Of a DNA stretch of 64,000 bases, positions 9,885 to 45,184 are shown in pieces. Source of the DNA: a virus; IMG/VR virus record IMGVR_UViG_3300032087_002150, positions 87,661 through 151,660 of that record; one strand, given 5' to 3'. Position numbers and translations under genes: made by a program. How positions within the stretch are numbered: position 1 is the first letter of the stretch; each line of letters starts with the position of its first letter. The notes under the pieces were generated by a model. That model did not search any database. It saw nothing but the letters and a program-made list of their open reading frames with translations, and was not told the origin of the DNA.

Positions 9885-11225
9885 TTAGGCAGAAACCATC
9901 AGGTTGTCTACACGGAAGATGCGGTAGTATTGGTTGGTCTTAGCAGAAGCGAGACCATCAGCAGGTGAGTTACCTACGAATGGGTTAGACGCCATGCCAT
10001 AACGAGTCTTAAACCCGATACGTGGCTGGAAGTCGTTCTCGCCGACAGCGCGAACCATCTGGAGTGGTACATATGGGCAGTAGAATACACCTGCGTCATA
10101 TGGGTTAGTGCCCTTGTAACCAACAGTTACATAGTCAGCAACCGCATATGGGTCGATGTAGATGCGCATACGACCGTTCAGAACACCAGCAAAAGTGTTA
10201 CCAGTGTCGTCAACTTCCAGAGAAGTGCTCAGAGCAGGAGCGTAGTCAAGCATACCAGAAGCAGCGAGAGCAGTAGCAACATCAGAAGATACGATTGCTA
10301 CGTTACCCTTACCACGACGAGTTTCTTTAGCGATAGTGTTCGCTTCACGATCCAGTTGAACCAGCAGACCCTTGAACTTCTCAACAGACCAACGACCATC
10401 AGCGTCCGTAGACAGGTCGAAGATACCGTTGGTAGCAGTGTTAGCAGTCAGTGCACCAGTCTTCGCTTGGCTGTTGATAGTACGGATAACTTCGCGGTTG
10501 ATTTCAGCAAGGATTTCTACTGAAAGGATGTTAGCGAGTTCCGCTTCAGCGTCAAGACCGTGGATTGCTTTCAGGTCTTGAGCGAGTTCGATGGTGTACT
10601 CTGCCTTCAGCGCACGTGACTTAGCAGTTACAGTCGCCTTCTCGATGGTGAAACCCATCTCGTTGAAGTCAGAAACACCGCCAGTGCCGAGTGCTTCAGC
10701 GTCAGCAGTTGGCATACCGCCACCAATGCTTGGACCAGAGCGGTCGTCATTGATAGTGCTGTCGCCGTTTGAGTCAGTTACACCGTCAAGACCAGAAGGA
10801 CCAGCAGTGTGAGTCGTAGAAGAGTCACCAGAGTATGGTACAACTGCTTCGTTGAACAATGCTTCTTGATCTACAGTAGTGCCAGAAGCTGCTGACTTGT
10901 AGCGAGACTTCATAGCGAAGATCAGACCAGTAGGACCAGACATTGGTTGAACACCACATACGTCGTATGCCATCAGGTTAGGCATAGCGCGACGAACGAG
11001 CGAGATCAATACTGGGTTCCAGTTGTCAGCACTTGAAGTATTGTTAGCAGCAGCAGCTTCGTTCAAGAAAGATGACTGAGCACCTTCAGCGCGCATTGCT
11101 GCTTCTTGGTTTTCAAGAATAGCAGCAGTTACTTTGCGACGATAAGCATCTTTGATGTCGCCTGCTGATTCTTCGTTAAGTACTGGTGCCCACTTCTGCA
11201 CCAGTGATTCGTAGTTCAAATCCAT
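9885..11225 (-). CDS. gp23: major capsid protein
   Basis: LVRRAMPNLMAYDVCGVQPMSGPTGLIFAM, ELAQDLKAIHGLDAE, FQPRIGFKTRYG. Confidence 0.99.
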   Translation of the reverse strand: MDLNYESLVQKWAPVLNEESAGDIKDAYRRKVTAAILENQEAAMRAEGAQSSFLNEAAAANNTSSADNWNPVLISLVRRAMPNLMAYDVCGVQPMSGPTGLIFAMKSRYKSAASGTTVDQEALFNEAVVPYSGDSSTTHTAGPSGLDGVTDSNGDSTINDDRSGPSIGGGMPTADAEALGTGGVSDFNEMGFTIEKATVTAKSRALKAEYTIELAQDLKAIHGLDAEAELANILSVEILAEINREVIRTINSQAKTGALTANTATNGIFDLSTDADGRWSVEKFKGLLVQLDREANTIAKETRRGKGNVAIVSSDVATALAASGMLDYAPALSTSLEVDDTGNTFAGVLNGRMRIYIDPYAVADYVTVGYKGTNPYDAGVFYCPYVPLQMVRAVGENDFQPRIGFKTRYGMASNPFVGNSPADGLASAKTNQYYRIFRVDNLMVSA

Positions 11226-11253
11226 TTTTATTTCTCCTTATGGGTAATATGGA

Positions 11254-12285
11254 TTAAGATCGATTGATTTTTCGCATGGCGTTGAGGTAAGATTCCATTG
11301 AAGGAGCAACTTCTTCAGAAACAACGTCGCCGTCAGTTTCTTCGACAATCTCTTCTTCGGTTTCTACCGTCGCCTTAGCAAAGAATGACTCTTTGATAGT
11401 AGCAACTTTGGACGCAAACTGTTCAGCGTCATCAAAGTCAACACCTTCTACCAGAGAGTAGAACTTCTCTTTCTGAGTATCAGCGAGTTCAGATGCTGCT
11501 TCGGCAACGATTGCTGCACGCTTCAGACCTTCAACTTCTTCACTCAGAGAAATCGCATCAGCAGTGGTCTTGTTGAGAGCTTCTTCGAGTTCTTCAACTT
11601 GATCTGCCAAATCGTCAACGAGGTCAACCTTGGATTCTGGCACGTCGATGTAAGACTCAGTGAAGAGGTTCTTCAACCCTTCCATGAAGTTCTCAGCAAT
11701 CTCAGCACGCAGACCAGTTTGGATAGCGACTTTGTTGTCTTCCATCCACTGCTCAACCACGTAGTTCAGGTAGGAATCAACCTTTTCAACCAACTCAGTC
11801 TTCTGCGCAGCAGTTTCCTCAGCGAGTTTTTCTTCGTAGGATGATTCGATTCGCTCTACTTCTTCAGAGAGCTTTGATTTCAATGCTGCTTCAAAGATTA
11901 CAGCAGTTTTTGCCTTAAACTCATCGCTGAGAGTGGCTTCAGACTCGACTAATGCTGCGAGTTCTTCAGAGTGAGTATCTGCTTCCGCAACTACTTCTTC
12001 CTCTTCCAACTCGACTTCTTCGCCCATCATCTTACCGTATGCTGCTTGAAGGTCAACCTTCTTCATAGCATTCAACTTACCGTACATAGCATTAATCATA
12101 CCTGCTTTGGTCTTTGGCATTGGTTCGCTGTTGCTCTTGTCACCCGTACGAGCAGGTGCTTTATCAGTTGCGTCTGCTGCCTTATCGACAGATGCTACTG
12201 ATTGTGCTTCAGCGTTTTTCATATCATGCCCTTTTGCTTCCGCAACTTCCTGCTCATCGCGGAGTTCAATGTTTTGATCTTCCAT
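11254..12285 (-). CDS. gp22: prohead core scaffold protein
   Basis: Acidic coiled coil, KVDSYLNYVVEQW, position upstream of gp23. Confidence 0.93.
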   Translation of the reverse strand: MEDQNIELRDEQEVAEAKGHDMKNAEAQSVASVDKAADATDKAPARTGDKSNSEPMPKTKAGMINAMYGKLNAMKKVDLQAAYGKMMGEEVELEEEEVVAEADTHSEELAALVESEATLSDEFKAKTAVIFEAALKSKLSEEVERIESSYEEKLAEETAAQKTELVEKVDSYLNYVVEQWMEDNKVAIQTGLRAEIAENFMEGLKNLFTESYIDVPESKVDLVDDLADQVEELEEALNKTTADAISLSEEVEGLKRAAIVAEAASELADTQKEKFYSLVEGVDFDDAEQFASKVATIKESFFAKATVETEEEIVEETDGDVVSEEVAPSMESYLNAMRKINRS

Positions 12286-12298
12286 TGTGTTCTCCTTA

Positions 12299-22260: not shown

Positions 22261-22261
22261 G

Positions 22262-23035
22262 TTATGCTCCGTTCAGCAATGTACCAGCAGAGTCGTAAAT
22301 TCCGATACCATTAAAACCATCAACTTGATCTGCGTTGAGGTTTGTTACTTTAGTTGTTGATGCAACAGTAAAAGGTGCTGTTCCTGTTGTGTTACTGAAG
22401 TTAACAGTTGCACCAGCAGCAGCAGTAAGTGTAGTTCCGTTATCGAACGTCAGCGTACCAGTAGTGTAGTTATCGGTAGCACCGCTGCTAAGGAACAATG
22501 GGGCATTTGAATCAATTTGACCTTGAACCTTTGCCGAATCGTACGACTCAACAGTAGCAAAGGAAAGTACACCAGATCCATTCGTAGTTATAAACTGATT
22601 AATTGCGCCATCAGAAACAGGATAAGTCAATCCGTTTAATACCGCACCACCAGATGCTGTTAAAGTATTAGTAAAAGTTTTAGCACCAGAAACAGATTGC
22701 GTACCAGTTAGTGTAACAGCAGCAGAATCAATCTGACCTAGAACTTTCGCGGAATCATATGATTCTACAGTTGCAAAAGAAAGTGTGCCTGAACCGTTTG
22801 TGGTTATAAACTGATTGATAGCACCATCAACAGTAGGATAGGTCAGACCATTTAAGACAGCACCGTTGGATGCAGTCAAAGTATTAGAGAACGTCTTAGC
22901 ACCGCTAATCGTTTGACTAGTGCCGAGAGTTACATAATTGTTTGTAACATCTGAATTTAATGCCTGAAAGTTGGAGTCTAACTCTGTGAAGGTTAGTGCA
23001 GATCCTTTTACGTTTCTTAGAGTGAGTTCGGCCAT
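22262..23035 (-). CDS. virion fibre/whisker-like structural protein with internal duplication
   Basis: N-terminal KGSALTFTELDSNF fibre motif, QTISGAKTF repeats, and a tandem 72-aa duplication. Confidence 0.65.
   Translation of the reverse strand: MAELTLRNVKGSALTFTELDSNFQALNSDVTNNYVTLGTSQTISGAKTFSNTLTASNGAVLNGLTYPTVDGAINQFITTNGSGTLSFATVESYDSAKVLGQIDSAAVTLTGTQSVSGAKTFTNTLTASGGAVLNGLTYPVSDGAINQFITTNGSGVLSFATVESYDSAKVQGQIDSNAPLFLSSGATDNYTTGTLTFDNGTTLTAAAGATVNFSNTTGTAPFTVASTTKVTNLNADQVDGFNGIGIYDSAGTLLNGA
22502..22933 (-). repeat. tandem 216-bp (72-aa) duplication
   Basis: VTLxxxQxxSGAKTF...ATVESYDSAKVxGQIDSxA occurs twice. Confidence 0.9.
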
Positions 23036-30704: not shown

Positions 30705-31487
30705 TTATGGTTTGCCTTCAAAATGATCCCCAACCTGAATCGCTGTTATTTCAGATAGATTTCTAGTAGCAGTATATGATTTATGATATAAAACTGTATT
30801 TTCTGGCATAGGCACTTCCCTATGCAACAAAGACCAATAGTTCCAACGATAGTTGTCTTCAAAAACACCAATCTTCAAGTCTTTATACTTCTCAACTTTT
30901 TCTGTTAACCACCAAAGAGTAAACTGATCCCAATGCCTTAAATGGTATGGGTAAGTTTCTTTATCATAGTTCCCCTCTTCATCGGTCGGCCACCAATGAC
31001 CTGCTCTTTGCTGCACATAAATGTCATACCATTCTTGCATAAATTCCATGACTAGAGGGTTGCTGCTATCATACAAACAAACGCCACCGCAAAGAGTAAA
31101 CTTACCGCCAGGAAAATCTATGTCTCTAAAGATATGATAACACTCTTCTCTTAAGTCAGTGAATACCATATCATTATCGCCGAGTTCATCAAACACCAAG
31201 GCGATGTCTTCATGCAAACATTCCATATCTGCGTCAATATAGAAAGTTTTATCGAATGGACTTTGAGCCATGCCCCAAAGTTTCGCTCTGTAGTTGTCGT
31301 CGCAGAAAATTATATGATCAGCAATCTTTTCCCGACCATCACAAAACCGTTCTTCGGTTACAAAGCAGACTTTTGCCTCGGGGTGATAGTCCTTTATCTG
31401 CTCTATAAGATTTAATGCCCAAGCATAGTAGACATCTTCTTTAGAGGCAACAATCAAGTATCCGTTATTTTGACTCTGCTGCTTCAT
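30705..31487 (-). CDS. GT-A fold glycosyltransferase (GT8-like)
   Basis: AKLWGMAQSPFDKTFYIDAD (DxD), CGGVCLY, WDQFTLW, RWNY and a C-terminal His. Confidence 0.75.
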   Translation of the reverse strand: MKQQSQNNGYLIVASKEDVYYAWALNLIEQIKDYHPEAKVCFVTEERFCDGREKIADHIIFCDDNYRAKLWGMAQSPFDKTFYIDADMECLHEDIALVFDELGDNDMVFTDLREECYHIFRDIDFPGGKFTLCGGVCLYDSSNPLVMEFMQEWYDIYVQQRAGHWWPTDEEGNYDKETYPYHLRHWDQFTLWWLTEKVEKYKDLKIGVFEDNYRWNYWSLLHREVPMPENTVLYHKSYTATRNLSEITAIQVGDHFEGKP

Positions 31488-31967: not shown

Positions 31968-33920
31968 TTAAGTTGCTGACACCCTTGTATATAGTGTATA
32001 TGTTTCCACATCTACTGGCACTGCCACCAGAGTTTCGCCAGCATATTGATTACCAAACTGTCTCGTATAGTATCTAGTGTATTGTCCAGTGTACTGCCCT
32101 GCATAATAACCAGTGTATGTTGCTGATCTTGTTCCGGTGAAGTTGATACTAGAAGGACCCAAGTACTGATCAGCATAGTTTCGGTTGCCAGTATAGTTTG
32201 CTGCGAAGTTTCTGACTCCTAAGAAGTTAACAGGTGCACTTGTATATTGTCCTGCATAGTTTCTTGAACCAGCAAACTGCCTAGTGCCAGCAAACTGTCT
32301 AGTTCCTGGGAAGTTTGCTGCTCTAGTTCCTAAGAAAGCACGAACCCCAGAATATGCAATATAGTTAGTGGATGCGAAATAATTATTTCCTAGGAAGTTA
32401 GCAGGTGTTGCTCTGACTCCAGAATAAGTTGGGAATCCAGTAAAAGTTGCAGGAGCAGGTCCCAAGAAATTCGTAACAGGTCCAGAGAAGTTTTCAGATA
32501 CCGCAACAAAGTTATTCGTTGGTCCTGGTCTCACCCCTGAAAAGAAATTCGGAAAACCTGCTTCAAAAGGTGCGGTGTTGCCTAATCTTTGACCAGTGTA
32601 AAATGCTGGTCCAACAAAGGTGCCAGGAGTAGGCGCACCAAAGGTTGTATAACTGCGTATTCCAGAATAAGAGCGAGTTCCTGCGAAGTTTGCTTGCCTA
32701 ACACCCACATAGGATGATGCAATATTAGCAGTGAAGGTTCCTGGAGCAGGTCTAGTTCCTAGGAAGTTTCTAGAACCAAGGTAAGAGGATGTTCCGAAAG
32801 CAGTAAAGGTCATTGGAACATAATCTGTTGCTGGTCTCACGCCCAAGAAGTTAGTCAAGGCAGAAGTAAACTGTGTTGTGGCGCTTGTGTATTGCCCAGC
32901 ATAGTTCCTTGACCCCGCAAACTGACGAGTTCCCGCAAAGTTTACAGGATTTGCTCTAACGCCAGCAAAGGATTCAGATTTAGTTCGTGATCCACTAAAA
33001 AGAACTTGCCTTACACCGAGGAAAGTTGCGGGAGGATTTTCATACCTTAATCTTGTGTATTGCCCAGTGTACTGTCCACTGTACTGAGTAGCGAACTGTC
33101 CAGTATACTGAGTTCCAGCATATTGCAGAATCTGTGTGGTGTTCTTTGTATCAACAGCAGTTCCTCTTGCTTCCCAAGTTCCGGAAGCAGTTGGAGCACC
33201 TTGCGCTGAAGAGCGCAGTTCGTATTCACCAACTCCGTTCGTATAGTACCCATAACGAATCATACCGTTACCGATTTCACCAACTTCTGATGCCGACAAC
33301 TCCTGAAAATCAAAATCGTTTATTCGTTTAATTGGATAATATACTTCTGAGTCAACATTGATTGTGAATTTGCGCCAAATATGATAATCAGTTGTCCCGT
33401 CAGTTTTAGTATCACTGAAGCAAGTATCAATCCATTTTTCGTATTCTGCTGATGGTTGAGTAGAGGACAACCTGAAAGTTCCAACTCTTTCTTCAGAATG
33501 GACAATTTCGTTTACTCTGAGAGCAAGAAGTTCATAACTCGCAGAATCCATAGGGTGTAATCCACCGTCTGAATCTACAACAATCATGTTCTCAACTACG
33601 CCATCAAATGGCACCTCATAAACTGAGTCCAACATCTGATACAATGTTGTAGTGGTAGTTGATGGTGCGGAAATGGACGTTCCTGGGTGCGTTCCGATTG
33701 GATCAGTGTAGAACGTATCGGTAAAAGTACCAATAGCAGAATCTTCAGCAGTATTCGTTAAGGTAATAGCACCGGAATATCGTTTACCTACTGAATCGAA
33801 TGCACCGACAAGTGCAAGACCACCTTCGTTGGCGAAGAGTTCTTCTTCCAACAAGGTCATTTGTTTAAGATCGCCGCTTGAGTTTAGGATCTTTATCGGT
33901 ATGCTATTCCAAGCAGACAT
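31968..33920 (-). CDS. fibre-like virion protein with [NF/Y]xGxR repeats (paralog A)
   Basis: Shares FTDTFY..GTHPG, YELRSSAQGAPT..GTWEARGTAVDT and ETYTLYxRV with 28515..30650. Confidence 0.7.
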   Translation of the reverse strand: MSAWNSIPIKILNSSGDLKQMTLLEEELFANEGGLALVGAFDSVGKRYSGAITLTNTAEDSAIGTFTDTFYTDPIGTHPGTSISAPSTTTTTLYQMLDSVYEVPFDGVVENMIVVDSDGGLHPMDSASYELLALRVNEIVHSEERVGTFRLSSTQPSAEYEKWIDTCFSDTKTDGTTDYHIWRKFTINVDSEVYYPIKRINDFDFQELSASEVGEIGNGMIRYGYYTNGVGEYELRSSAQGAPTASGTWEARGTAVDTKNTTQILQYAGTQYTGQFATQYSGQYTGQYTRLRYENPPATFLGVRQVLFSGSRTKSESFAGVRANPVNFAGTRQFAGSRNYAGQYTSATTQFTSALTNFLGVRPATDYVPMTFTAFGTSSYLGSRNFLGTRPAPGTFTANIASSYVGVRQANFAGTRSYSGIRSYTTFGAPTPGTFVGPAFYTGQRLGNTAPFEAGFPNFFSGVRPGPTNNFVAVSENFSGPVTNFLGPAPATFTGFPTYSGVRATPANFLGNNYFASTNYIAYSGVRAFLGTRAANFPGTRQFAGTRQFAGSRNYAGQYTSAPVNFLGVRNFAANYTGNRNYADQYLGPSSINFTGTRSATYTGYYAGQYTGQYTRYYTRQFGNQYAGETLVAVPVDVETYTLYTRVSAT

Positions 33921-33937
33921 ACTGTATTATCCTTTCT

Positions 33938-35092
33938 TTAAGCGTTCAACAATGTGCCATTGCGATCATAAACGTTCGGGACTCTGGCGTTGACTTCGGC
34001 AAGTGCTCCGTGGACAGTTTTAGCAGTTGTATGCGGAGTGGCATCACCAGAGGCAGGCATTTCTATTGCTCGAGAGAAAACGATATCTGCGCTGTCAGTT
34101 CTCCACACTTCCTGTGAAGCAGAATAAAGTCCAGTGTAGAAAATTATGTCGCCGGAATTATTAACAATACTGGCAAACTCAGAACCTTCTACAGAATCAG
34201 TTTGAAAGTGAATATGCCCATTACCAGAAGCAAGGCGCACATCCGAGTCAGCATCAAGAGTAACACCACCAACAGCGGTAGTAATCATGAGAGTGCGAGC
34301 AACTTCCATTCGAGTTTCTGCTGGCGCGAGGTTCCAACTGATAACCTGATCGCTGTCTCTATAGAAGTAAATATTACCGTCATAGGTGTCTAGTGTCATA
34401 TCGCCTGTAACATCAATATGGTATCCACCAGTTACTTCTAGTTTATTATCTGGACCAAAGGTGTACTCGTATCTTGTATTGCTACCTCGCATGAAGGTAA
34501 TACCAGAAGCAGAATCTGCTACTTGCAGAGTCAACTGACCATCAGTTGAAATGGTGTAGTCGCCAGTTACAGAATCTATGTTACTGGTTCCCATCGTACG
34601 ATTGAATCGAGTGACGCCGCCATCTTTATGGACGATGACCCCACCATCAGCATCTAAGGTAATGTTATTTTGAACATCGAATGAAAGATCGCCTGTTACT
34701 GTGTGCGTTTCATCGCCAACAGTGATTACGGCGAGAGCGGAGTCAGTGGTAATCTTACCTGCGTTAGCATCAAATACTGCTTCGATTTCATTAATGGCGT
34801 CAACAATCACCTTCGCTTCGGTGTCCAAGTCAGCACCACTACCGCCACCAGCACCGTGCAAGTCGCTGTCAAGTTCGTTGAGAGCGTCTACAAGGGTGTT
34901 CGCGGTAAAGTCGGTCAAACCCCTTACCTTACCCAAATTGCCTGATGTTTCTGGTCCAATAGCGGAATCCAGATACTTCATATCTGAGTCAACAATATCA
35001 CCGAAATGATTAAGGTCAGTGATTAGTTGTTGAAAGGTATCCGTCGTCTGAAATAGAGGATGGTCGCTGTCATGAAACATGTTATTCGACAT
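33938..35092 (-). CDS. fibre/whisker-like structural protein
   Basis: N-terminal TDTFQQL..DLN, repeated TAxTLVxAxNE segments, and beta-helix-like repeats. Confidence 0.6.
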   Translation of the reverse strand: MSNNMFHDSDHPLFQTTDTFQQLITDLNHFGDIVDSDMKYLDSAIGPETSGNLGKVRGLTDFTANTLVDALNELDSDLHGAGGGSGADLDTEAKVIVDAINEIEAVFDANAGKITTDSALAVITVGDETHTVTGDLSFDVQNNITLDADGGVIVHKDGGVTRFNRTMGTSNIDSVTGDYTISTDGQLTLQVADSASGITFMRGSNTRYEYTFGPDNKLEVTGGYHIDVTGDMTLDTYDGNIYFYRDSDQVISWNLAPAETRMEVARTLMITTAVGGVTLDADSDVRLASGNGHIHFQTDSVEGSEFASIVNNSGDIIFYTGLYSASQEVWRTDSADIVFSRAIEMPASGDATPHTTAKTVHGALAEVNARVPNVYDRNGTLLNA

Positions 35093-35093
35093 T

Positions 35094-35324
35094 TTAGTGC
35101 TTCTCTATCATTGTTTTTATTAGGTCTTTAAGTTCCGAGAACTCTTTTTTTAAATCAGCGATATCTTCTTGCATCGCTTTTTCTTTTTCCCTTTTGGCGA
35201 TTACACGTTTTTTCATTTCGCGTGCACGCTGTATTTCTTCCTTGTTTGTATTTAGTATTGCGCCAGTAGAGAGGTCTTTAACTAGACTAGAATGACCCTC
35301 AACATGCCTAAGTTCTTTTTTCAT
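35094..35324 (-). CDS. conserved small hypothetical protein
   Basis: VEGHSSLVKDLSTGAILN plus a coiled coil. This type of gene typically follows the DUF4815 gene. Confidence 0.7.
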   Translation of the reverse strand: MKKELRHVEGHSSLVKDLSTGAILNTNKEEIQRAREMKKRVIAKREKEKAMQEDIADLKKEFSELKDLIKTMIEKH

Positions 35325-38300
35325 CAGATCAAAGCAATCGCTTTAATGTCTCGAATGATCGGAACTTGACAACTATTCCTGGTTCTCAACACTATTTTTA
35401 TTTGGAACTGACGGAAGTCAGGAAGGTTGCCATCAATCCCGCCTAGAAGATACCTATACTCGCTATATGTAATCTCTCCAGGACCCTGAACATACAGGTT
35501 CTTAGGAGGATCATTATCTGGGACGACTCGCTCCCAGTCTACAGTATAGATATCCTGATCATCGCCAGTAGTTGTTCGATAATATAAATCGAAATCTGCT
35601 TCTGGCGGTACGTGCAACTTAGCAATAATTCGCAAACCATTTCCTGCCTCAGGGAGGATAATTGGTTTTGTAATATGCTTGGATGGAGTAGTACCAGACA
35701 ACGGATGAGTTTCAGGCAGGAAGTCTTGTGGAGCATTCCTTACGGTATCAGCACCATCAGAATCCCATGCTTGGTTGTCAACGATGTAGTTAAGCATGTT
35801 TGCTCCGACACCTTGAATATCAATCATCGGAGTCAAATCAGAAACGTAACCAGACGCTTTCACAGATTGCGCTCTAGGACCGCCAAAGTTGGAAACCTGA
35901 GATGTTTGTAACTTAGTGGTAACAACGATTGAAGGTTCTCCATTCAACGCTGTTGGACTCAAAGTTTGATCACTATTAGCGAGGTAACGAGGTGTGTCAA
36001 AGTATATTGTCTCAAATGGAGTCAATGTAAACATTCCATTACCATTTGTTCCTGGGGTTGACGTATCGTCGATATCAAATCTGGTGTCTTGGGTTGGTGT
36101 AGAAAGTCCAACCTTACCATGCGAGAATCCGCTAACGAAACTTGCTTGATACTGAATACTGGTTCCTGTGAATTCTACATCAGAAACATTCCAAGTAAAC
36201 CTGTCGATATTACAAGCGGAAAGACTGCTTACTGAATCTGCGCCAAACTTACCAGTCGAAGTAAAGGTTGATCCGTCATTAATGGCAACATAATAACCAT
36301 TAACATCAGGATCCACAACCACGTTGGCACTGTCCATAATTGAACCGCCAGTAACACCGTTGTAATCAGTTCCTGATCCTAATCCTCGGATAATAACCTT
36401 ATCGCCGTCTAGCAAGTTGTGGTACTTGTGCTCAACACGGAAACGAGTTAGGTCGTCCGAATCAACAGATAAACTTGTTGCATAATTGTGGTTAACTCTA
36501 AAATCTGGTTGATTGTAGAAATTAACAAATCCTTGCTTCTTGAACTTCGCAGTATAGATACGGAATGCCAAATCTTGATTCTGTTTTGGAGTCCAAGTAG
36601 AACCGTTCTGAGACAAGAAGAGAGAACCAGTTGCAGGTTGCTTAGAAACACGCTTATCAGTTCTACCGATTACCAGATCATATGTTGTTGCTACAAATGC
36701 CTCGTATCCATCACAGTCTGACAATAGAACCAGAGCGTATTCTTTACCCGCCTGAATATAAATTGGTTCTTCAAACTCAAAAGTTACTGGGTTCGCTAGA
36801 ATATTATCCAGAGTAGTTTCGTCAGGATCGGTCACATTAGGAATCGCAGCAACCACATCACGCACTTCTTTAGCGGTCTTATAAACACAGTGCTGCTCGC
36901 TTATAGGCGCACGGTTCGGAGTTCCGTTTGTCACATCTCTTATCTGTAACTGTAGTTGAACTTGAGGTTCACTAGCAGCAGGTGCTCTCCGCATAAACAC
37001 ATCAATCTTGGTGATGAATGCTCCGCTAGTCATGGATGAAGCGACTAGCGAGAAAGTCTGCGCCAATGGATCATATGGAACCCAAACAACTTCGCTTTCT
37101 GTCGAGATCGTTTCGCTTTCTAACGTCTCTGCCACTCGATCAATATAATCCTCAGTTCTAACAACGCGAGTGCTTACAATATCTCTCCTTCTGGTGATTG
37201 CACGACCAGCAGCGCGATATCTTGTTTTCGCTCTAGAAAGTGCGTCGCTACTTACGCCAGAAGAAACGTCCAAAAGTTTTACTTCGCGCGAACCAACTCT
37301 AAACTTCCATCCGGCATAGTCATAAACAGCAGGATCTCCTGCGCCGAAACGAGCAACACCTTCTTTAACTTTCTTCAACCAAGTTTCAAGTTCTTCTTCG
37401 TAAGGGAACACTTCAGATTCAGGAACAGGGATGACTGCTGTATTCGGGATGAACAAATCAAAATACAGATTACCGAATTGGTCTGAAATAAGAACGTTTT
37501 CGTTTGAAACATTGAGAGAATTAGGATGCTTCTTCATCCAAGTAGCAACAGGCGCATATTGTTTATTTTGTGCACCTGCGTCCAGCAATGTGGTGTAAGA
37601 ACCTTCGTCCCGACTCAATACCCACTGATCCATCCTAACTCCGTCGAAGTACAACCAGAAACGTGTATCTGGGCGCAGACCTTCTGCTTTACCGAGCACT
37701 CGTCGAGCTCGGATAAATGGAACAGTACTTACATCTATGATCTTATCTTCGTCGAAAGTTTCAATTTGATCGCTTACTACGCGAGTGCGAACACGCTCAG
37801 TAATTCTTTGAGTAACTCGGCGAGTGGTTGTCGTTCTTTCGATTTCTCGCTCGACACGACCTGCCTCATTAATTCTACGTCCACCCAAATCTCTAGTTGT
37901 GGTTCTTGTAGAAACAAAGGTAGCAGTCCAAGTTCTAGGAACATATGCAGATAGATCATTCAACTTAATGTAAATGGTTTCGTTGGTAATATTTCTATCA
38001 GGCAAGCGATGATTGTCTACCCAGAAATCAGCGGAAGGTCTTAGTTTCAGATTACCTTCACCAGCAAATACGTTAAATGGGTTGACATTATAGTACCCAC
38101 GTTCTTCGTATGAGTATGGGGTCATCCATGAAATTACTTCTTGACTTAGAGCGGAATCAAGAACTTCTTGATAGTCCAGCATCAACATATCGCCCTTTCG
38201 GACAATGTTGCTCAAAGAAGGAATAGTAGTTGTGCCTCTTGCTCCGGATACCGAGTCGCCTGAATCGTAGATAAAGTCGTTCCAGAACTTAGTATGCTTC

Positions 38301-41152
38301 GGTTGAATCTCGCCCTTTAACGTATCAAGAGTCTGCGTGATCCAACTTTCGTCATCAATAAAGTTCGGTCCAACTTCTGCTGAAGCGAGGGCAAGTCCAT
38401 AACTGAAATCGTCAACGAAGAAACCAGTCTTAGAGCGAATATTCCCTTCGCCATCCTGCTCGATAAGATTTTGCGCTTCTTGTTCGATAAACGAAAGGGC
38501 AACAGTTTCTTCCAATCGCCCGACTCGGTTTCTTAGACGATCGATGTCTCGCATAGTGTAGCGAGGATATCGGTTAGTGGAAACCATCAAATCCCTGACA
38601 GATTTAGTATTGCCGTTCAACAAAATATTGAAGAGGCGCATTGTACTTTCATCTGGTTGAGGAATTCCTGGTACGAGTTCCTCATCTCCTCTCTTAGTAT
38701 AGAGAACAGGTCTAAATGTGGTTTTGTCGTATGTTAAGTTGATCCCATCTATTCTCTTATTATAGTATTCTACACCAAAACTAATTGTATCACCATCTCT
38801 AGGAATTTCATTGTAGTCTGCAGAGTTTATGGTATCTTCTAATGGGTTAAGTTTTGGACGCAGGTCGAAATACTGATGTAGAGGATATGGTTCGCCATCC
38901 AACTTGGAGACAAACGTAGGAATATCACCGTAGTCAAACTCAGGGAACTGACTTGTTGCAGATGCTGAGTCAGTAAACAAGTATGAGTTTGGTGAGAAGT
39001 ATCCGTCATTTCTAGTCCAAGTAAAGTATCCAATCTTCGCAAGGACTGAGTCGGTAAGATCACTGACTCCTCTGTTTGGGGTCAATGAAACAGGACCGTA
39101 GAAGTTATCTCGTTGTCCACCGTCAAATACGACGTTGTTAGTGATCACTGATCCATCAGAGTCAGAATCATATGCGTGGAGCAATCTCACACCGTCATAC
39201 AATCCAGACATCGCAGTTCCATCTGCTTTACTGGTAATCAGGAAACGATCACCAACAGAATCATTGTATCTTCGCAGTTTAAACCAACCTTCTGTGTACT
39301 TCTTCGTGTCTGGAGTAAGACCACCAGACTTCAATCCTTTTTGTACATAATAGTATACTTTGTAGTTGTGACCGTTTACAGGATTTGGGGGAGTAATAGT
39401 TGCTGTTCCTGACGATATAGTAATGTCACCCGCGCCGATGATAGGCGCACTATCTGTGTCAGTGTTGATGAAAACCCATTGTCCATCATCAACGAAATCT
39501 TCATCTGATCCACAAGTGAGTGATAGAGTTCCTGATGAAACCGAAACATCATCAAACCTTTGAACTGTCATTTTTACATCACTGACACTCTTAACGCGGT
39601 GGTTTGAAATTTCAAATAGAGAATTATTAACTTCCGGTCCAATTATAAATGCTTGTTGATCTTCTAATTGAAACTGTAATGTGTCAGTAGCAGATGCAGC
39701 ACCAACTTCGCGCATAGTCTCAACATCGCGGAAGTTTTTTCCTGCCTGCATTTGAATATCCATCAAATGAACTCGATATTGAGTATCAATACCTTTTACA
39801 TTATTGCCTGTTTTACCGTTGTCTACAGTTGTCCAGTCCATATTAACAACGGACTTAACTCGCGCATGACCGATACAGACACCACTTTCGTTTAGCAGTT
39901 GTTGTTTCTTCAGTAAGTTAAGGTTAGAAGGATTCCAGTCTCCTAAGAAACTATTAGTGCCTGAATCATTGCCCTTGACGCCGAGATAGTTCTTGAAGAA
40001 AACGCCTGTGCTTGTGCCTGAATCTGAAGTAGTTGAGACTGGTTTTTCAACATAAAGAACATTGTCGAGTTCTTGTTCTAAACGAAATCCGTCTACATAG
40101 GCAAGGGGATTCAATCCTTGATCATTGACTCCGGACAAGTGATATCGCATTCTCGTAGCATCACCGTTGGAGTCATCCCATTCGTCAACTTCCAAAGCAA
40201 ATTTGTTGACGATAAAGTCTCCGAGTGCTTCGTTTTGGCGAGTCGCCATTCTTCTTTCAATTTGATTAAAACTATCCGTGCCCTGTTTAATCTGTACAAT
40301 CTTAGATTCTCGAACCTTAGCAAATTCAATGAAGTCCAATCTATCAGATACTTGATTTTCAGTTATTAGTTGAAGTCGGATTCTATAGCGATCGGCACCT
40401 GGAGATGATAGGTTTGGTCGAGCACCTTGGTTGTCGTACAATCTTTCGTCATCAAGAACAGTAACAATGTCTTGTACAATTTCAAAACCAACGTTGGCGT
40501 TTGCTACTGCGCTGTGCTTAGAGATGGCAAGTTGCTGTTTCGGGGCGATAACGAAATGCCCACGAGTAAAGAAGTCAGCAGTCTGCATTGTGAAGATAAC
40601 ACCTCGTCCAGTTGAAGAGGGTTCACCAGCAGCAGTATCCTGCTTGTGTACTCGCAAGTCGCTCAACCCAGGAATTTCCAAAGTTTCTTCTTCGACAAAA
40701 GCAAGTGGGGCGGTAAAAGTATCAGTGTTAGATGCACCTGCTGCGCCTTGAGAAACATATCTTCCATATAATACAGGAAGATCGTCTCCGCTTGCAACTT
40801 CTACGTGGTTACATTGGAAAATAAGTCCAGATGTTTTGCCGCCCTGTGTACTTGTACCAGTAATTGTGGCGCCAATATAATCTTCCGGATCGTCATACAG
40901 TTCGTCAACGATCACATATGATCGAATGTCAGTACCTGCACCAGAACTCTTCGGAGCTACCGCACCGCCATCTTGAAAAATGTTTGCAGCGAACTTCGTG
41001 ATTTGATTCTGCAAGATTGTTTGTAACTGAGTAAGTTCCCTCGCCTGCAAAGGACGACCGCTGTTGAACAGGATGCGATAATATCCATCGCTATCAAGGA
41101 AATCGTCTTTGTAAACGTTCTTAAACGTGTTATCAGTATACGGATTAGGCAT
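35324..41152 (-). CDS. large virion structural protein (DUF4815/VrlC-like)
   Basis: YYRILFNSGRPLQARELTQLQTILQNQI, SPGADRY, KTGFFVDDF, DPLAQTF, GSLFLSQNGSTWT. Confidence 0.88.
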   Translation of the reverse strand: MPNPYTDNTFKNVYKDDFLDSDGYYRILFNSGRPLQARELTQLQTILQNQITKFAANIFQDGGAVAPKSSGAGTDIRSYVIVDELYDDPEDYIGATITGTSTQGGKTSGLIFQCNHVEVASGDDLPVLYGRYVSQGAAGASNTDTFTAPLAFVEEETLEIPGLSDLRVHKQDTAAGEPSSTGRGVIFTMQTADFFTRGHFVIAPKQQLAISKHSAVANANVGFEIVQDIVTVLDDERLYDNQGARPNLSSPGADRYRIRLQLITENQVSDRLDFIEFAKVRESKIVQIKQGTDSFNQIERRMATRQNEALGDFIVNKFALEVDEWDDSNGDATRMRYHLSGVNDQGLNPLAYVDGFRLEQELDNVLYVEKPVSTTSDSGTSTGVFFKNYLGVKGNDSGTNSFLGDWNPSNLNLLKKQQLLNESGVCIGHARVKSVVNMDWTTVDNGKTGNNVKGIDTQYRVHLMDIQMQAGKNFRDVETMREVGAASATDTLQFQLEDQQAFIIGPEVNNSLFEISNHRVKSVSDVKMTVQRFDDVSVSSGTLSLTCGSDEDFVDDGQWVFINTDTDSAPIIGAGDITISSGTATITPPNPVNGHNYKVYYYVQKGLKSGGLTPDTKKYTEGWFKLRRYNDSVGDRFLITSKADGTAMSGLYDGVRLLHAYDSDSDGSVITNNVVFDGGQRDNFYGPVSLTPNRGVSDLTDSVLAKIGYFTWTRNDGYFSPNSYLFTDSASATSQFPEFDYGDIPTFVSKLDGEPYPLHQYFDLRPKLNPLEDTINSADYNEIPRDGDTISFGVEYYNKRIDGINLTYDKTTFRPVLYTKRGDEELVPGIPQPDESTMRLFNILLNGNTKSVRDLMVSTNRYPRYTMRDIDRLRNRVGRLEETVALSFIEQEAQNLIEQDGEGNIRSKTGFFVDDFSYGLALASAEVGPNFIDDESWITQTLDTLKGEIQPKHTKFWNDFIYDSGDSVSGARGTTTIPSLSNIVRKGDMLMLDYQEVLDSALSQEVISWMTPYSYEERGYYNVNPFNVFAGEGNLKLRPSADFWVDNHRLPDRNITNETIYIKLNDLSAYVPRTWTATFVSTRTTTRDLGGRRINEAGRVEREIERTTTTRRVTQRITERVRTRVVSDQIETFDEDKIIDVSTVPFIRARRVLGKAEGLRPDTRFWLYFDGVRMDQWVLSRDEGSYTTLLDAGAQNKQYAPVATWMKKHPNSLNVSNENVLISDQFGNLYFDLFIPNTAVIPVPESEVFPYEEELETWLKKVKEGVARFGAGDPAVYDYAGWKFRVGSREVKLLDVSSGVSSDALSRAKTRYRAAGRAITRRRDIVSTRVVRTEDYIDRVAETLESETISTESEVVWVPYDPLAQTFSLVASSMTSGAFITKIDVFMRRAPAASEPQVQLQLQIRDVTNGTPNRAPISEQHCVYKTAKEVRDVVAAIPNVTDPDETTLDNILANPVTFEFEEPIYIQAGKEYALVLLSDCDGYEAFVATTYDLVIGRTDKRVSKQPATGSLFLSQNGSTWTPKQNQDLAFRIYTAKFKKQGFVNFYNQPDFRVNHNYATSLSVDSDDLTRFRVEHKYHNLLDGDKVIIRGLGSGTDYNGVTGGSIMDSANVVVDPDVNGYYVAINDGSTFTSTGKFGADSVSSLSACNIDRFTWNVSDVEFTGTSIQYQASFVSGFSHGKVGLSTPTQDTRFDIDDTSTPGTNGNGMFTLTPFETIYFDTPRYLANSDQTLSPTALNGEPSIVVTTKLQTSQVSNFGGPRAQSVKASGYVSDLTPMIDIQGVGANMLNYIVDNQAWDSDGADTVRNAPQDFLPETHPLSGTTPSKHITKPIILPEAGNGLRIIAKLHVPPEADFDLYYRTTTGDDQDIYTVDWERVVPDNDPPKNLYVQGPGEITYSEYRYLLGGIDGNLPDFRQFQIKIVLRTRNSCQVPIIRDIKAIALI

Positions 41153-41164: not shown

Positions 41165-42739
41165 TTACAGGTCAATCACGATCTTGACGTCTTCAGTTTG
41201 TTCGTCATCTCGAGTAATTTTAACTCTGTTATCTATGTAGATAACTTCTCCCGAGAACCTGTCTGCTTCTGCTGGTCGTAAGTGTGGTTCACGAATATTA
41301 TTAGCACTATCATTTGGAACAATTGTTCCAGTGCCCAAAGGAGATGTTCCTTCGTAAAATTCTATGTTATTTGTTCCATCAAATCTCTTAAATCCAGTTG
41401 CTCTTGTTTGATGGACATACGCAACTGCTGTTGTTGAATCATATGTAGCATCGAAGTAGTCTAGAATTGCTTCAGCATTCGAATTAGTCTGCCTTACTAT
41501 TTGGTCACCAGTTAAGTTAGCAGCAAAACCACTTGTTCCTTGTACGAACAATCTCTTGTAAACTTGGGCGGTCAGACTACTCACAACTGAATCGCCTGTG
41601 AAATCAATCAAATCTGCTGAATCTTTTAGCGGATTCTTGATCAATCCAACCTGACGGAAGTCGTTTCGCACATTAAAGTCGTTGTTTTCTACACCAGTCA
41701 GAGTTGCGTTAAACATAATTGCTGACGAGTTCAAGTTTACAACTGGGTTGCCTCCCATGCCAGAGTCACCGTCGATAATCGCGCGAAGCACACATCCAGA
41801 ACCAGTACCAACACTGTCTGGATCCAACTCTACAGATGCGTTTTTATAATTTTTACCGAACGAAAACGTCGACGCAGTAGCAGAGTCTTTCATAATTACC
41901 TGATAGACGACACCAGAGGCATTAGTCCTGGCAAACCCTCGCGCGGAGTCTCCTGGATTAGTTCTAAATCCAAGACCTCGGTTGCGAATATTTTCTCCAA
42001 ATATTTGCAGACTAATAGTGGTGTTTGCAGAATATCCACTACCACCATTTTCGACAGCAACACCGATGATTTGTCCATCAACCGCTGCTTTTTGAATCGC
42101 TAACTGATTCGCTCTTGTGGTTGTTAGTTCGTCAGTGGCAGGACCGCCGTCAGCGGAGTCAATGATTTTTTCTACTGGGATATATGATGAAGTTAAAAAC
42201 TTTCTCGCTTCAGCAGCACCAACCGTAAACAAAAACTGCCAAACATATCCGTCATTAGGGTCAGAAAAAGGTACTCCTGTAGTTGTAGCAGGTTTTACGG
42301 TAGAAGTATTTGGGTTTCCATCCGCGTCCATACCTTGTTGTAGGCAAACAAACACACTATTATCATCAGTGATCACGTAGTATGACTGTTGAATATCACC
42401 ATCTGCTCTAATGGTAGTGTTAGAACTGTAATAATTGTCCCACTGATTGTATACTGTACCAGCAATCCAGTTATGTCTTGGTACAACGTATGAAACGTCA
42501 GGAACAAGTTTCAAAGACTGTAGGGATTCTTGAAACTTTAAGGCATCATCGCGTGAAGGATTTGGAACAGGAGGATTGAGTTCGCCAGTTGTGGCAGTCG
42601 AATCCCACTCTTCTGCTCGACCAATCCCAAGATAAAAACGATCCGAGTCAGTTCCTGCTGTTTTACCAATGTTTAAGTAAGAGTCATAAATCTTTTCAAG
42701 AATTTCTCTTTTAAAACTATCTGATACTGTTGCTACCAT
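41165..42739 (-). CDS. gp8: baseplate wedge subunit
   Basis: VPRHNWIAG, YYVITDD..VFVCL, DGYVWQFLF, SGEVIYIDNR, QTEDVKIVI. Confidence 0.88.
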   Translation of the reverse strand: MVATVSDSFKREILEKIYDSYLNIGKTAGTDSDRFYLGIGRAEEWDSTATTGELNPPVPNPSRDDALKFQESLQSLKLVPDVSYVVPRHNWIAGTVYNQWDNYYSSNTTIRADGDIQQSYYVITDDNSVFVCLQQGMDADGNPNTSTVKPATTTGVPFSDPNDGYVWQFLFTVGAAEARKFLTSSYIPVEKIIDSADGGPATDELTTTRANQLAIQKAAVDGQIIGVAVENGGSGYSANTTISLQIFGENIRNRGLGFRTNPGDSARGFARTNASGVVYQVIMKDSATASTFSFGKNYKNASVELDPDSVGTGSGCVLRAIIDGDSGMGGNPVVNLNSSAIMFNATLTGVENNDFNVRNDFRQVGLIKNPLKDSADLIDFTGDSVVSSLTAQVYKRLFVQGTSGFAANLTGDQIVRQTNSNAEAILDYFDATYDSTTAVAYVHQTRATGFKRFDGTNNIEFYEGTSPLGTGTIVPNDSANNIREPHLRPAEADRFSGEVIYIDNRVKITRDDEQTEDVKIVIDL

Positions 42740-42753: not shown

Positions 42754-43599
42754 TTATGGTACAATTGTTAAACTATCGGAAGAATCAAGACCCATAGGCA
42801 TCCATTCGGATGGCGTAGCGTGCCAAATCAATTCTATTCCGCGCTTTCCTTTCAAGACCATTGAAGTTCCTGGTCCGAAATTTGATGGCGTGATAGTTGC
42901 GTTCCCGCTGTTAATGTTTACAAACTTTTTAATTTGCCCTGTTACTGTTCCATCTGGGCAAGTAATCGTCGTTGTTCCAGTGCTGTTGATGAACGTGATA
43001 GGAACCCATGGATCAGCAGCGCCAGAAGCAGTTAATTCTTCTGTGTTTTGAATGATCGGAGCATCTACGTACAAACCTCCTTCATTTAAAGGAGTGATTC
43101 GAATATCAACGTCAGTTGTTCCACTTGCAGCATCGCTATCAACGCACAACTTTATGGAATTGACAGAATCGCCGTTATCCAATCTTAGAAAATGTGTTGA
43201 AGAAGTGACGCCATTTAACTCTAGAATCTGATTACCATTGGAGTCATGAATCATGCCAACCTTTGGTGTAGTCAAAGTCTTATTAGTCAGAGTGTCTATA
43301 GTATTTTTAAGAACTACAGTACCAGTCGTATTTGGCAAAGTAATTGTTTTATTACTACCAGTCGCGACATCACCAACTAACGTAGTTGTATATGATCCTA
43401 CATCTGAATCGCCAAAAATAATATTACCATCGGAATCTAGGTGAAAGTTTCCCGTCGCTGCATCTGAATCGCCAAGGAGTTCGAAGATTGTTTCAAAATT
43501 CCCGTTGATTTTATCAGCAGCAGCGCGCAGAGTATCACCAGTGCCATCATTAGCAGTGGTTCCGTTCAGCAATATTAGTCGGTTTGTACTGTGTGCCAT
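42754..43599 (-). CDS. gp9/gp10-like baseplate-fibre connector
   Basis: N-terminal GTTANDGTGDTLRAAADKINGNF motif. Confidence 0.7.
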   Translation of the reverse strand: MAHSTNRLILLNGTTANDGTGDTLRAAADKINGNFETIFELLGDSDAATGNFHLDSDGNIIFGDSDVGSYTTTLVGDVATGSNKTITLPNTTGTVVLKNTIDTLTNKTLTTPKVGMIHDSNGNQILELNGVTSSTHFLRLDNGDSVNSIKLCVDSDAASGTTDVDIRITPLNEGGLYVDAPIIQNTEELTASGAADPWVPITFINSTGTTTITCPDGTVTGQIKKFVNINSGNATITPSNFGPGTSMVLKGKRGIELIWHATPSEWMPMGLDSSDSLTIVP

Positions 43600-43625
43600 T
43601 TTTGCGTTCCGTAAATTCTACTGTT

Positions 43626-43633
43626 TATTTATA
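43626..43633 (-). promoter_or_regulatory. late promoter TATAAATA
   Basis: Exact consensus, intergenic. Confidence 0.75.
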
Positions 43634-43639
43634 CCAGTT

Positions 43640-45184
43640 TTATGAAGTTCCACTAGGATTATGAATAGTTCCATCACTATCTATAGGCAATAATGGATTT
43701 TCTGTATATTGGATAAGATTATCGTCATTCGCCCCAAATACACTTGTGTTTCCTAGACCATCACTGTCGCCATTCAAGAAAGCATTTTTCAACCGTCCAG
43801 AAGAAGAACCTGCCATTGCTGCCAGTCTATCTCTAATTAACTCGGTATCTGGTGCTGTCGAACTATCGCGAAGATCGTTAGGGAACTTTATAGTCGTGAA
43901 GTTGCCTGATCCATCACTATCGTATCCATACCACTTATCTTCATCAAGCAGGTTAATTGTGTTTGAAAGGTCAGCATATGTGCCATCAATCGTTCTTCCT
44001 TCAATGAGATCTGCCTCATAGATTGATTTATACTGAGTGTGCCAACCACCAACGTTGCGAGGATGCGTCATATCATTAACGCGAGTCCTAATCTTTTCAC
44101 CATATGGTCCTGGTCCAATCTCTGTGATTGAAGTAGAGAACAATCCTGTTCCGTTGCGCTTCAATACTTGCGCAGTAGAGAACACCTCTACAGGAGGTGG
44201 TGGTTCGATAAACGATGGTTGTGGACCCAAATTAAAGTCAAAAATCGAGTTTATCTGCACCTCACCAGCAAGGTACATACCTGCTGGATGCACGAACGTT
44301 TTGTATGCCTGCCTCCAAACTGGTACACCAATAGGAGTAGATATTAAAATTCCATACAATTGATAGAACTTATTATCAGTGATTCTTTTCAGCGTTACTT
44401 CTGAACCGATAGTTGAGTATGATCTGGTTTCTGAAACCATCTTCAGATTACTTCCGACAGGAACATACCCTGTATCATTTAAGAACTTTAATTGTGAGTC
44501 ACTATCATATAGTGATTCGCCGTTACTATCAGTTCCGATAGGAGTCAGTGGCGTTAAATATTGCCCTTCACTGTCAACTGGGGTCAATCTGATATTAAAA
44601 GCAGAAAACTCTCTCGTGTAATCTATGCCCTGCCTCAGTGGAACATATTCGCCTTGACTGTCTTGAACATATAGGTTTATTTCTGAACCCATAAAGGTAT
44701 AGGGGAAGTTATGTCCACCGTTTTCGCCTTGACCTTCAAAAATCATTTCTTCTTCGTTAGGGTCTCCAACGTAGAAAACTTCATCTTTTCCGTAACGAAC
44801 TTCAATATCGAGACCGTAAAATACACGGAAGAACTGTTTGATAGAAAACTCAGTTCCCTTTGATCGGTATAATAAGTTTGAATATTGTAACGAAGTTCTT
44901 TTATCTTGGAACGATTCGTAGTATGGTTTACCCATCAAGAGTTCGTTGGCAATAAAGTCGAGCAACTCAACCTTCGCGCCAGTTACGTCTCTGTTCAACA
45001 ACAAATCATTTAGTGCTTCAGTCGCTGCACCTTCTTCCTCTAATGTTTTATAATATTCTTGTAGGAAGTTTACAAGTTTTGGGTACTTGGTGTCAAAATG
45101 TCCGGGCAAGGTCTCATAAACCTGATACTTATCAAGGTCAAGTTTATGGCGATAAACGTCTGTTAGAGTTTTATCTAATGGCAT
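43640..45184 (-). CDS. gp7: baseplate wedge subunit (gp7-like)
   Basis: YPKLVNFLQEYY, LYRSKGTEFS..FFRVFYG, FVHPAGM, following gp6. Confidence 0.75.
   Translation of the reverse strand: MPLDKTLTDVYRHKLDLDKYQVYETLPGHFDTKYPKLVNFLQEYYKTLEEEGAATEALNDLLLNRDVTGAKVELLDFIANELLMGKPYYESFQDKRTSLQYSNLLYRSKGTEFSIKQFFRVFYGLDIEVRYGKDEVFYVGDPNEEEMIFEGQGENGGHNFPYTFMGSEINLYVQDSQGEYVPLRQGIDYTREFSAFNIRLTPVDSEGQYLTPLTPIGTDSNGESLYDSDSQLKFLNDTGYVPVGSNLKMVSETRSYSTIGSEVTLKRITDNKFYQLYGILISTPIGVPVWRQAYKTFVHPAGMYLAGEVQINSIFDFNLGPQPSFIEPPPPVEVFSTAQVLKRNGTGLFSTSITEIGPGPYGEKIRTRVNDMTHPRNVGGWHTQYKSIYEADLIEGRTIDGTYADLSNTINLLDEDKWYGYDSDGSGNFTTIKFPNDLRDSSTAPDTELIRDRLAAMAGSSSGRLKNAFLNGDSDGLGNTSVFGANDDNLIQYTENPLLPIDSDGTIHNPSGTS

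Follow-up and report, generated by a model that had tools for sequence, protein, structure and literature searches.

Gene content of the 64-kb window

We analyzed a window of 64,000 nucleotides (positions 87,661 to 151,660 of the IMG/VR virus record IMGVR_UViG_3300032087_002150), and in particular its stretch 9885-45184, in which the outer baseplate and tail-fibre proteins carry the dipeptide Asp-Ser (DS) about three times as often as expected. The window is the final 64 kb of the 151,660-bp record, and every gene lies on the minus strand. In tblastn searches, the major capsid protein gp23 was 65% identical to that of phage C48C1 and 57–61% identical to those of Methylophilales phage Melnitz, Pelagibacter phage HTVC008M and cyanomyophages. 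Thus, based on the capsid identities, the phage is an uncultured marine T4-like myophage, the nearest cultured relatives of which have SAR11, OM43 and cyanobacteria as hosts. The psbA-type family (PF00124) was not found in the genome, and a cyanophage identity was rejected on this ground.

The genes in this stretch are ordered gp23, sheath, neck, a variable fibre island and then the baseplate wedge, which consists of gp8, a gp9/gp10-N-like protein, a protein in the gp7 position, gp6 and a VrlC-like protein of 1942 amino acids (aa). In pelagimyophages and cyanomyophages, a variable island between VrlC and gp14, in which fibres are interleaved with glycosyltransferases, has been described as the host recognition cluster, with VrlC as its upstream edge (Zaragoza-Solas et al. 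2020, PMC7029224). The region 21502-35092 of the window matches the layout of this cluster. The structural proteins considered here are as follows.

41165..42739, minus strand: gp8 baseplate wedge protein, 524 aa (Pfam PF09215, PHROG 438), with the strongest DS excess
42754..43599, minus strand: gp9/gp10-N-like wedge or fibre-connector protein, 281 aa (Pfam PF07880), below called the gp9/10-like protein
43640..45184, minus strand: wedge protein in the gp7 position, 514 aa (Pfam PF23786, Baseplate_wedge)
33938..35092, minus strand: 384-aa fibre, for which no Pfam or PHROG family was found
22262..23035, minus strand: 257-aa fibre with an internal duplication and a weak BppL_N match below the cut-off
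31968..33920, minus strand: fibre paralog A, 650 aa, which aligns with paralog B over 756 columns at 35% identity
28515..30650, minus strand: fibre paralog B, 711 aa, with 4 DS against 1.7 expected (not significant)
35324..41152, minus strand: VrlC-like giant baseplate protein, 1942 aa (Pfam PF16075, DUF4815)
45190..47112, minus strand: gp6 inner wedge protein, 640 aa (Pfam PF21379, PF21871)
47660..50044, minus strand: gp5-like hub/spike protein, 794 aa, with weak Gp5 C-terminal matches
9885..11225, minus strand: gp23 major capsid protein, identified by tblastn and serving as the negative control inside the stretch

The Asp-Ser excess in outer tail proteins

Expected DS counts were obtained from 1000 shuffles of each protein, and the proteins were ranked over the 191 open reading frames (ORFs) of the 151.7-kb genome. 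Six proteins displayed a 2.5- to 4.5-fold DS excess (shuffle p ≤ 0.006), and these were the top six of all ORFs. They are gp8 with 13 DS against 3.6 expected (z 5.4, p 0.001), the 384-aa fibre with 11 against 3.2 (z 4.8, p 0.001), the gp7-position protein with 9 against 2.8 (z 3.8, p 0.002; contexts include four DSDG), the gp9/10-like protein with 8 against 1.8 (z 4.9, p 0.001), the 257-aa fibre with 6 against 1.4 (z 4.2, p 0.003; four of the six stem from one internal duplication) and paralog A with 6 against 1.8 (p 0.006), all inside residues 42–190. The excess in the 1942-aa VrlC-like protein was marginal (18 against 12.2, p about 0.04–0.075), and Ser-Asp (SD) also occurs 18 times in this protein. 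Over the whole genome, 214 DS were observed and 205.9 expected.

The counts in gp23 (3 against 2.3), the sheath (5 against 3.7), the portal (5 against 2.1), the neck proteins and a 1229-aa protein (6 against 8.7) were at chance level. The inner wedge protein gp6 was depleted (1 against 3.9), and the gp5-like protein had no DS against 4.3 expected. We conclude that the DS excess is genuine but limited to the tail periphery. A preliminary description of this DNA had called the enrichment virion-wide, which does not hold for the capsid, sheath, portal, neck or 1229-aa protein. Its hand counts were all reproduced exactly, as were the positions it had given (134, 151 and 155 in gp23, 97 to 280 in the 594 residues of gp18, and 226, 246 and 257 in gp15). 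The clustering of DS in variable parts of proteins such as gp23 and gp18, to which it had drawn attention, is without statistical weight, since the counts in the capsid, sheath, portal and neck are themselves within chance.

Set against shuffled sequences and against SD, Glu-Ser (ES) and Asp-Thr (DT) as controls, the excess claimed earlier stood in the six proteins. In the nine outer proteins taken together, DS was the top outlier of all 400 dipeptides (79 against 29.5). The reversed dipeptide SD was not comparably enriched (44 against 29.5), DT occurred 30 times against 37.8, and neither ES (14 against 17.4) nor Asn-Ser (NS; 20 against 27.0) was enriched. The serine codons inside DS were of the AGY type in 28.5% of the cases, compared to a genome usage of 26.8%, and DS is therefore not a DNA motif. 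The signal is one of protein level and has a direction.

That the excess arose by chance, as an artefact of composition or from a DNA-level motif, such as GANTC methylation sites read as GAY-TCN, is hardly credible. Asp and Ser do both favour loops, and some DS copies are internal duplications, as in the 257-aa fibre and the fibre repeats of relatives. Against chance stand the p values and the ranking given above, together with the reproduction of the bias in more than 100 homologs. A loop-composition artefact was ruled out because SD is not comparably enriched and because the expectation for gp8, when limited to coil residues, is 2.9 against the 13 observed. A DNA-level cause (GANTC or GAYTC) was likewise ruled out by the AGY serine codons, which are at the genome rate, and by the unenriched ES (GAR-TCN).

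The sequence around the 79 sites in the outer proteins was also biased. The residue after DS was Asp at 24 sites (4.3-fold enriched), Ala at 21 and Val at 11, and Gly was 2.4-fold enriched at +2. The tripeptide DS[ADS] was found 47 times against 6.6 expected (7-fold), and the motif as a whole is D-S-(D/A/V)-x-G-like. The outer set holds about ten copies of DSDG, and DG is mildly enriched (1.45-fold). This pattern might indicate that DS(D/A)xG loops are Ca2+/Mg2+ or hydration sites, which would stabilise the fibres and the baseplate periphery in seawater, the DS-poor lineages described below then reflecting a change of habitat. The frequent Asp after DS, the Gly at +2, the mild DG enrichment and the likeness of the DSDG copies to DxDG calcium loops are all consistent with such sites. 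However, most sites are DSA or DSV, with one acidic ligand each, and marine cyanophages and Pelagibacter phages of the same waters show no such bias. We regard cation binding as improbable.

Two of the enriched fibres have further features. Residues 81–205 of the 384-aa fibre are homologous to residues 16–142 of the gp9/10-like protein (27% identity, E 5e-5), which suggests that the two proteins share a common attachment module. Within the 257-aa fibre, about 72 residues are duplicated in tandem, so that GSG.LSFATVESYDSAKV.GQIDS occurs twice, and the protein weakly resembles the N-terminal domain of lactococcal BppL.

Relatives of the phage and the glycosyltransferases

The distribution of the bias was analyzed in 120 gp8 homologs (35–90% identity) and in 80 IMG/VR loci with a gp6 tree. 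In the gp8 homologs, the observed-to-expected ratio (o/e) was 2.1–3.4 for DS and about 0.5–0.7 for DT. The gp6 tree separated a DS-rich clade (38 rows) from a DS-poor clade. In the DS-rich clade, DS was enriched 2.4-fold in gp8, 2.3-fold in the gp9-like protein (134 against 57.4 in the orthologs of the DS-rich loci) and 1.9-fold in the gp7-like protein, as compared to an o/e of about 1 for gp8 in the DS-poor clade. The whole genomes of clade members G001–G005 also displayed very strong DS excesses in the fibres, for example 46 against 16.5, 49 against 14.4 and 29 against 6.4. No DS excess was found in the baseplate and fibre proteins of T4, S-PM2, S-SSM5, Mosig and C48C1, all with an o/e near 1 (3 against 2.7 in gp8 of C48C1), which rules out that all T4-like phages share the bias. 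A trait common to T4-like orthologs, which the preliminary description had set against its proposal, was thus not observed, and the bias is limited to one uncultured marine T4-like clade.

Two DS-poor lineages are found within this clade. One is L061 (IMGVR_UViG_3300021085_000111, a 34-kb contig), which the tree places inside the DS-rich clade (99% support) as sister to L024 and L079. Its gp8 shares 56% identity with those of these sisters and has no DS against 2.9 expected, the fibres are without DS excess, and DS has been purged from the gp9-like protein too, although the fold families are kept. The other is the P0045 lineage, the closest relative of the DS-rich subclade to which the window belongs (52–58% identity in gp6 and 45–54% in gp8), with 13 DS against 18.1 in its entire host recognition cluster. 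Judged by the tree and the sequences, the bias was lost twice independently within the clade, in L061 and in P0045, and the L061 sequences show that DS is not required for the folds.

The preliminary description had named, as the possible reader of the motif beside a host enzyme, the product of a glycosyltransferase (GT) gene in the fibre island, which together with two other genes forms a cassette.

30705..31487, minus strand: GT8-fold glycosyltransferase (GT-A, DxD), 260 aa, assigned from the predicted fold and invariant residues
31465..31944, minus strand: 159-aa protein, member of the GT cassette, for which no Pfam or PHROG family was found
27839..28522, minus strand: 227-aa protein, third member of the GT cassette, for which no Pfam family was found

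The 260-aa GT matched no Pfam family (E ≤ 0.01, including GT8, PF01501), no PHROG and, by single sequence or by profile, no entry of the Protein Data Bank (PDB); the ESM Atlas gave merely a lead to PF03407/PF01501 clusters. The AlphaFold2 (AF2) model had a predicted local distance difference test score (pLDDT) of 90.9 and a predicted template modelling score (pTM) of 0.88. Foldseek matched the model to glycogenin, LgtC, UGGT and GlyE with a probability of 1.00, an E value of about 6e-9 and a template modelling (TM) score of about 0.5. In 37 homologs of 48–74% identity, D85-A-D87, D187, Q188 and H235 were invariant, and we take the last three to correspond to D188, Q189 and H244 of LgtC. The model and the alignment agree with the earlier assignment of this gene to the glycosyltransferases, with a GT-A, nucleotide-sugar-binding fold and a DxD motif; the product is, by predicted fold, a GT8-fold, DxD glycosyltransferase.

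That this enzyme glycosylates the DS serines of the virion proteins is very unlikely in the light of its distribution among relatives. The gene does sit among fibre genes, the GT-A fold has the DxD motif, and glycogenin, UGGT and GlyE, which are protein-directed GT8/GT24 enzymes, are among the closest folds, but the top folds also include the lipopolysaccharide enzyme LgtC. In G001, the GT is flanked by strongly DS-rich fibres (46 against 16.5, 23 against 7.7 and 22 against 7.1). However, an intact ortholog, 55–59% identical and with the DxD motif kept as YIDAD, is present in L061 despite the absence of DS from its gp8, and orthologs are also found in DS-poor C48C1 and on the record that encodes the DS-poor gp8 of P0045. 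Conversely, DS-rich G002 contains no homolog even at E 0.1, with its VrlC-to-gp14 island fully inside the 142-kb contig. The association between GT and bias thus fails in both directions, and the GT8-fold enzyme of the host recognition cluster was rejected as the determinant of the DS bias. GT8 is the commonest glycosyltransferase family in the pelagimyophage cluster, and these enzymes were interpreted by the authors as modifiers of the host O-chain (PMC7029224).

A second set of sugar enzymes is encoded outside the window, in a sugar-tailoring island at 2300-12235 of the genome that adjoins PhoH. The island contains two GT25 genes (PF01755, 32.9 and 27.2 bits), genes for a Nucleotid_trans-like protein, a phosphoribosyltransferase-like protein, a methyltransferase, a sulfotransferase, an NAD-dependent epimerase and a carbamoyltransferase, and a weak GT8-like match. 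Homologs of the GT25 genes were found in the DS-rich G001, G002, G003 and G008; five complete DS-poor genomes had none. However, a GT25 of 60% identity is present on the very record that bears the DS-poor P0045 gp8, and the sugar island therefore does not track the DS bias either. As a determinant of the bias it was rejected as not sufficient. Other contigs (L152) have a related island, there with four GT25 genes.

The cassette around the 260-aa GT is a conserved one. Homologs of the 159-aa protein adjoin the GT in L061, L016, L022, L055 and L166, a homolog of the 227-aa protein directly follows the GT in L061 and L166, and in the latter two the three genes are contiguous. In the window the cassette is split, with fibre paralog B inserted between the GT and the 227-aa gene. 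No Pfam family was found for the 227-aa neighbour, which had been termed oxygenase-like. Elsewhere in the window, a possible fibre accessory protein of 118 aa (23716-24072) gave a sub-threshold match to an LtfC-like beta-sandwich (24.8 bits, cut-off 27). An Amidase_2 (N-acetylmuramoyl-L-alanine amidase) domain is present in a 492-aa protein encoded at 50044-51522, directly adjoining the gp5-like hub gene. The cell-wall-cutting activity may thus reside on a separate baseplate protein, the gp5-like protein having weak gp5 C-terminal repeats.

Readings of the motif and comparison with known systems

The positions of DS in gp8 were compared across the homologs. Seven of the 13 DS (query sites 31, 46, 194, 285, 325, 373 and 383) fall in columns conserved across the 120 homologs, and columns in which DS reaches at least 30% account for 624 of the 1027 DS in 121 gp8 sequences (about 60%). 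The DS scattered outside these columns amount to about 3.3 per protein, as many as composition predicts (3.6), and there is therefore no sign of extra sites gained in variable loops of gp8. The alternatives seen in the conserved DS columns are S-D, A-E, S-P and P-E. In an AF2 model of gp8 (pLDDT 86), 12 of the 13 DS are in coil, two to three residues past the end of a strand, or at the first residue of a short helix. The helix-start sites are at 7, 194 and 373, and DS19 lies within helix 7–22 as assigned by DSSP. At the same gp8 loops, DS-poor relatives have PKGG, DG or ST.

In the fibres of relatives, DS recurs in phase with the repeat units. A fibre of G002 with an Mtd_N domain displays GTIDSARIP every 18 residues, and the fibres of G001 contain the units LSYDSATGV, ATFDSATIT and ANFDSDLGD about 20 residues apart. 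In the 257-aa fibre of the window, pairs of DS are 9 residues apart (94/103 and 166/175). The G002 fibre (L119:289-3447) is 1052 aa long and has, ahead of the GTIDSARIP repeats, an N-terminal domain that resembles Bordetella Mtd (PF18454, E 6e-11), and its gene sits between the capsid and sheath genes, outside the host recognition cluster. In tblastn searches with the repeat, homologs were identified in Streptomyces, Lactobacillus, Mycobacterium, Arthrobacter and other phages (Actinobacteria, Firmicutes and marine); the matches to the repeat region in the Mycobacterium and Arthrobacter phages are minor tail proteins. A host shared with Pelagibacter podophages was rejected as an explanation of the bias, because the fibre of HTVC028P matches the repeat yet is not DS-rich. 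In the two matches examined, the tailspike of Streptomyces phage Kradal and the adsorption protein of Lactobacillus phage Ldl1, the repeat reads GT(L/F)DA(A/S)(R/K)(I/V).

We favour the hypothesis that D-S-(A/D/S/V)-x-(G) serves the fibre and wedge modules as a structural turn or cap motif specific to this lineage, and put the chances of this at about even; the capping or turn role is what we infer from the contexts just described. The Asp would cap a tight turn or the start of a helix, and the motif would open the small building blocks of trimeric fibre shafts as well as surface loops of gp8, the gp9/10-like protein and the gp7-position protein. The modules of this clade would use Ser after the capping Asp, where those of other phages use Ala, Gly or Pro. 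The DS excess would then represent conserved structural positions and repeat units and not a glycosylation code. We favour this hypothesis because of the conserved columns, the loop and helix-start contexts, the in-phase repeats, the D-A equivalents in other phages, the capping-type alternatives at the conserved columns and the failure of either GT set to track the bias.

Three observations weigh against the turn or cap motif. Firstly, an approximately two-fold depletion of DS in gp6, gp25 and gp5-like, which are inner baseplate proteins, is seen only in the DS-rich clade, with an o/e of 0.43 (58 against 134.4), 0.41 and 0.46, respectively, compared to 0.83–0.93 in the DS-poor clade (70 against 74.9 for gp6), whereas SD in gp6 is at 0.56 in both. 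Secondly, L061 has kept only 3 of the 20 DS shared by its sisters in gp8, the gp9-like protein and VrlC, as compared to 47% of the other shared dipeptides (Fisher p 0.005). Thirdly, Ser is preferred over Ala, Thr and Gly in several proteins without detectable mutual sequence similarity.

These observations bring in a possible, though distinctly less probable, explanation, namely that DS(A/D/S) is a sequon for a serine-directed modification (glycosylation, a phospho-sugar or other), read by a phage enzyme beyond the two GT sets or by a cytoplasmic enzyme of the host, with sites kept at the periphery and avoided inside. Such a sequon would account for a bias that is directional and Ser-specific across dissimilar proteins, and for the coupling, in the same clade, of enrichment in gp8, the gp9-like protein and gp7 with depletion in gp6, gp25 and the gp5-like protein. 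The preferential loss of DS in L061 is coordinated over gp8, the gp9-like protein, VrlC and the fibres, and gp6 of L061 has regained DS at five positions (6 against 4.2). P0045 provides a second nested DS-poor lineage, and the genome is rich in tailoring enzymes, as listed above for the sugar island. A trans-acting reader of DS would give rise to such losses and to the opposite trends of outer and inner proteins; however, the same patterns could result instead from a relaxed loop constraint and different pools of fibre modules.

Several results argue against such a sequon. Both GT sets occur in DS-poor phages, the excess in gp8 is found only at conserved positions, new sites not being in surplus, and the published interpretation of the pelagimyophage GT8 enzymes is modification of the host O-chain (PMC7029224). 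Furthermore, non-virion proteins are not depleted in DS relative to DS-poor phages. The DS baseline of the non-structural proteins is 0.82–0.92 in DS-rich and DS-poor genomes alike, and there is thus none of the proteome-wide avoidance expected of a promiscuous DS-directed enzyme. In its most explicit form, D-S-(A/D/S) would be a serine modification code of the tail periphery, selected for on the fibres and the outer wedge and against on the inner baseplate, and switched off at least twice, in L061 and in P0045; this we consider rather unlikely. The earlier suggestion that DS has been selected repeatedly on exposed surfaces stands in so far as the lineage-specific selection in peripheral tail proteins is real, and falls in its link to the GT at 30705-31487.

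If structural, the motif would be a compact signature by which the fibre and outer-baseplate modules of an uncultured and very abundant group of ocean phages can be recognised in sequence, and would help to annotate receptor-binding proteins that are now without a family match. As a modification code, it would be without precedent among the sequon-like signals described so far for the virion proteins of tailed phages that infect Gram-negative marine bacteria, and some of the many glycosyltransferases of these genomes, a load that is largely unexplained, would gain a function. The nested DS-poor lineages L061 and P0045 offer a ready-made contrast for testing either of the two. A full-text search on O-glycosylation of phage virions and tail fibres returned no publication that deals with DS or DSA as a motif of phage fibres.

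The preliminary description had likened the motif to the sequon of general protein O-glycosylation in Bacteroidota. That process is periplasmic and acts on exported proteins, whereas the virions of tailed phages are assembled in the cytoplasm. The sequon is (D)(S/T)(A/I/L/V/M/T) (PMC8550257), and the two have in common a short motif led by Asp-Ser, which at 35 of the 79 sites here is followed by A/I/L/V/M/T, mostly Ala and Val. However, this class of residues is at background (background fraction 0.37, p 0.12), and Asp, which the sequon excludes at +1, is the commonest residue there. The sequon allows Thr, which is not used here: the o/e of DT is 0.79 in the outer proteins, and DT[AILVMT] occurs 9 times against 14.4 expected. 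A Bacteroidota host would be expected, whereas the nearest cultured relatives infect SAR11, OM43 and cyanobacteria. The analogy breaks down on Thr, on the +1 residue and on the cell compartment.

Mycobacteriophages were the second system invoked. According to the account in PMC12619734 of Freeman et al. 2023, their virion glycans are on C-terminal extensions of the capsid and tail-tube subunits. Judged by that account, the likeness lies in phage-encoded glycosyltransferase genes beside structural genes and in a proposed sugar on the virion surface; here, in contrast, the capsid and tube are without DS excess, and the GTs do not track the motif.

The staphylococcal GT-B enzymes SdgA and SdgB glycosylate Ser in long tandem Ser-Asp repeats in the cytoplasm. 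The compartment and the Ser inside D-S-D contexts are similar, but the sites in this phage are isolated and not tandem SD repeats. The GT at 30705-31487 itself shares the GT-A fold, the invariant DxD, the Asp-Gln pair and the late His with the retaining GT8 glycosyltransferases glycogenin and LgtC and with the UGGT domain, but differs from known GT8 enzymes in having no Pfam GT8 or PDB sequence match and a TM score of only about 0.5.

Among the pelagimyophages, the cultured phage Mosig has neither the DS bias nor the GT family of 30705-31487, unlike the phage analyzed here, and the DS bias is not mentioned in the paper on the host recognition cluster (PMC7029224). The closest parallel to the repeats of the clade is found in the fibre shafts of Kradal and Ldl1, in which the repeat has the same unit and register as GTIDSARIP of G002. 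Repeats of this regularity are absent from the fibres of the window itself, although these do carry the motif. In Kradal and Ldl1, the Asp is followed by Ala, whereas in the marine clade it is followed by Ser. The occurrence of D-A in the repeat of unrelated phages thus suggests that Asp followed by a small residue is an old and widespread structural feature, of which only the Ser is specific to the clade.

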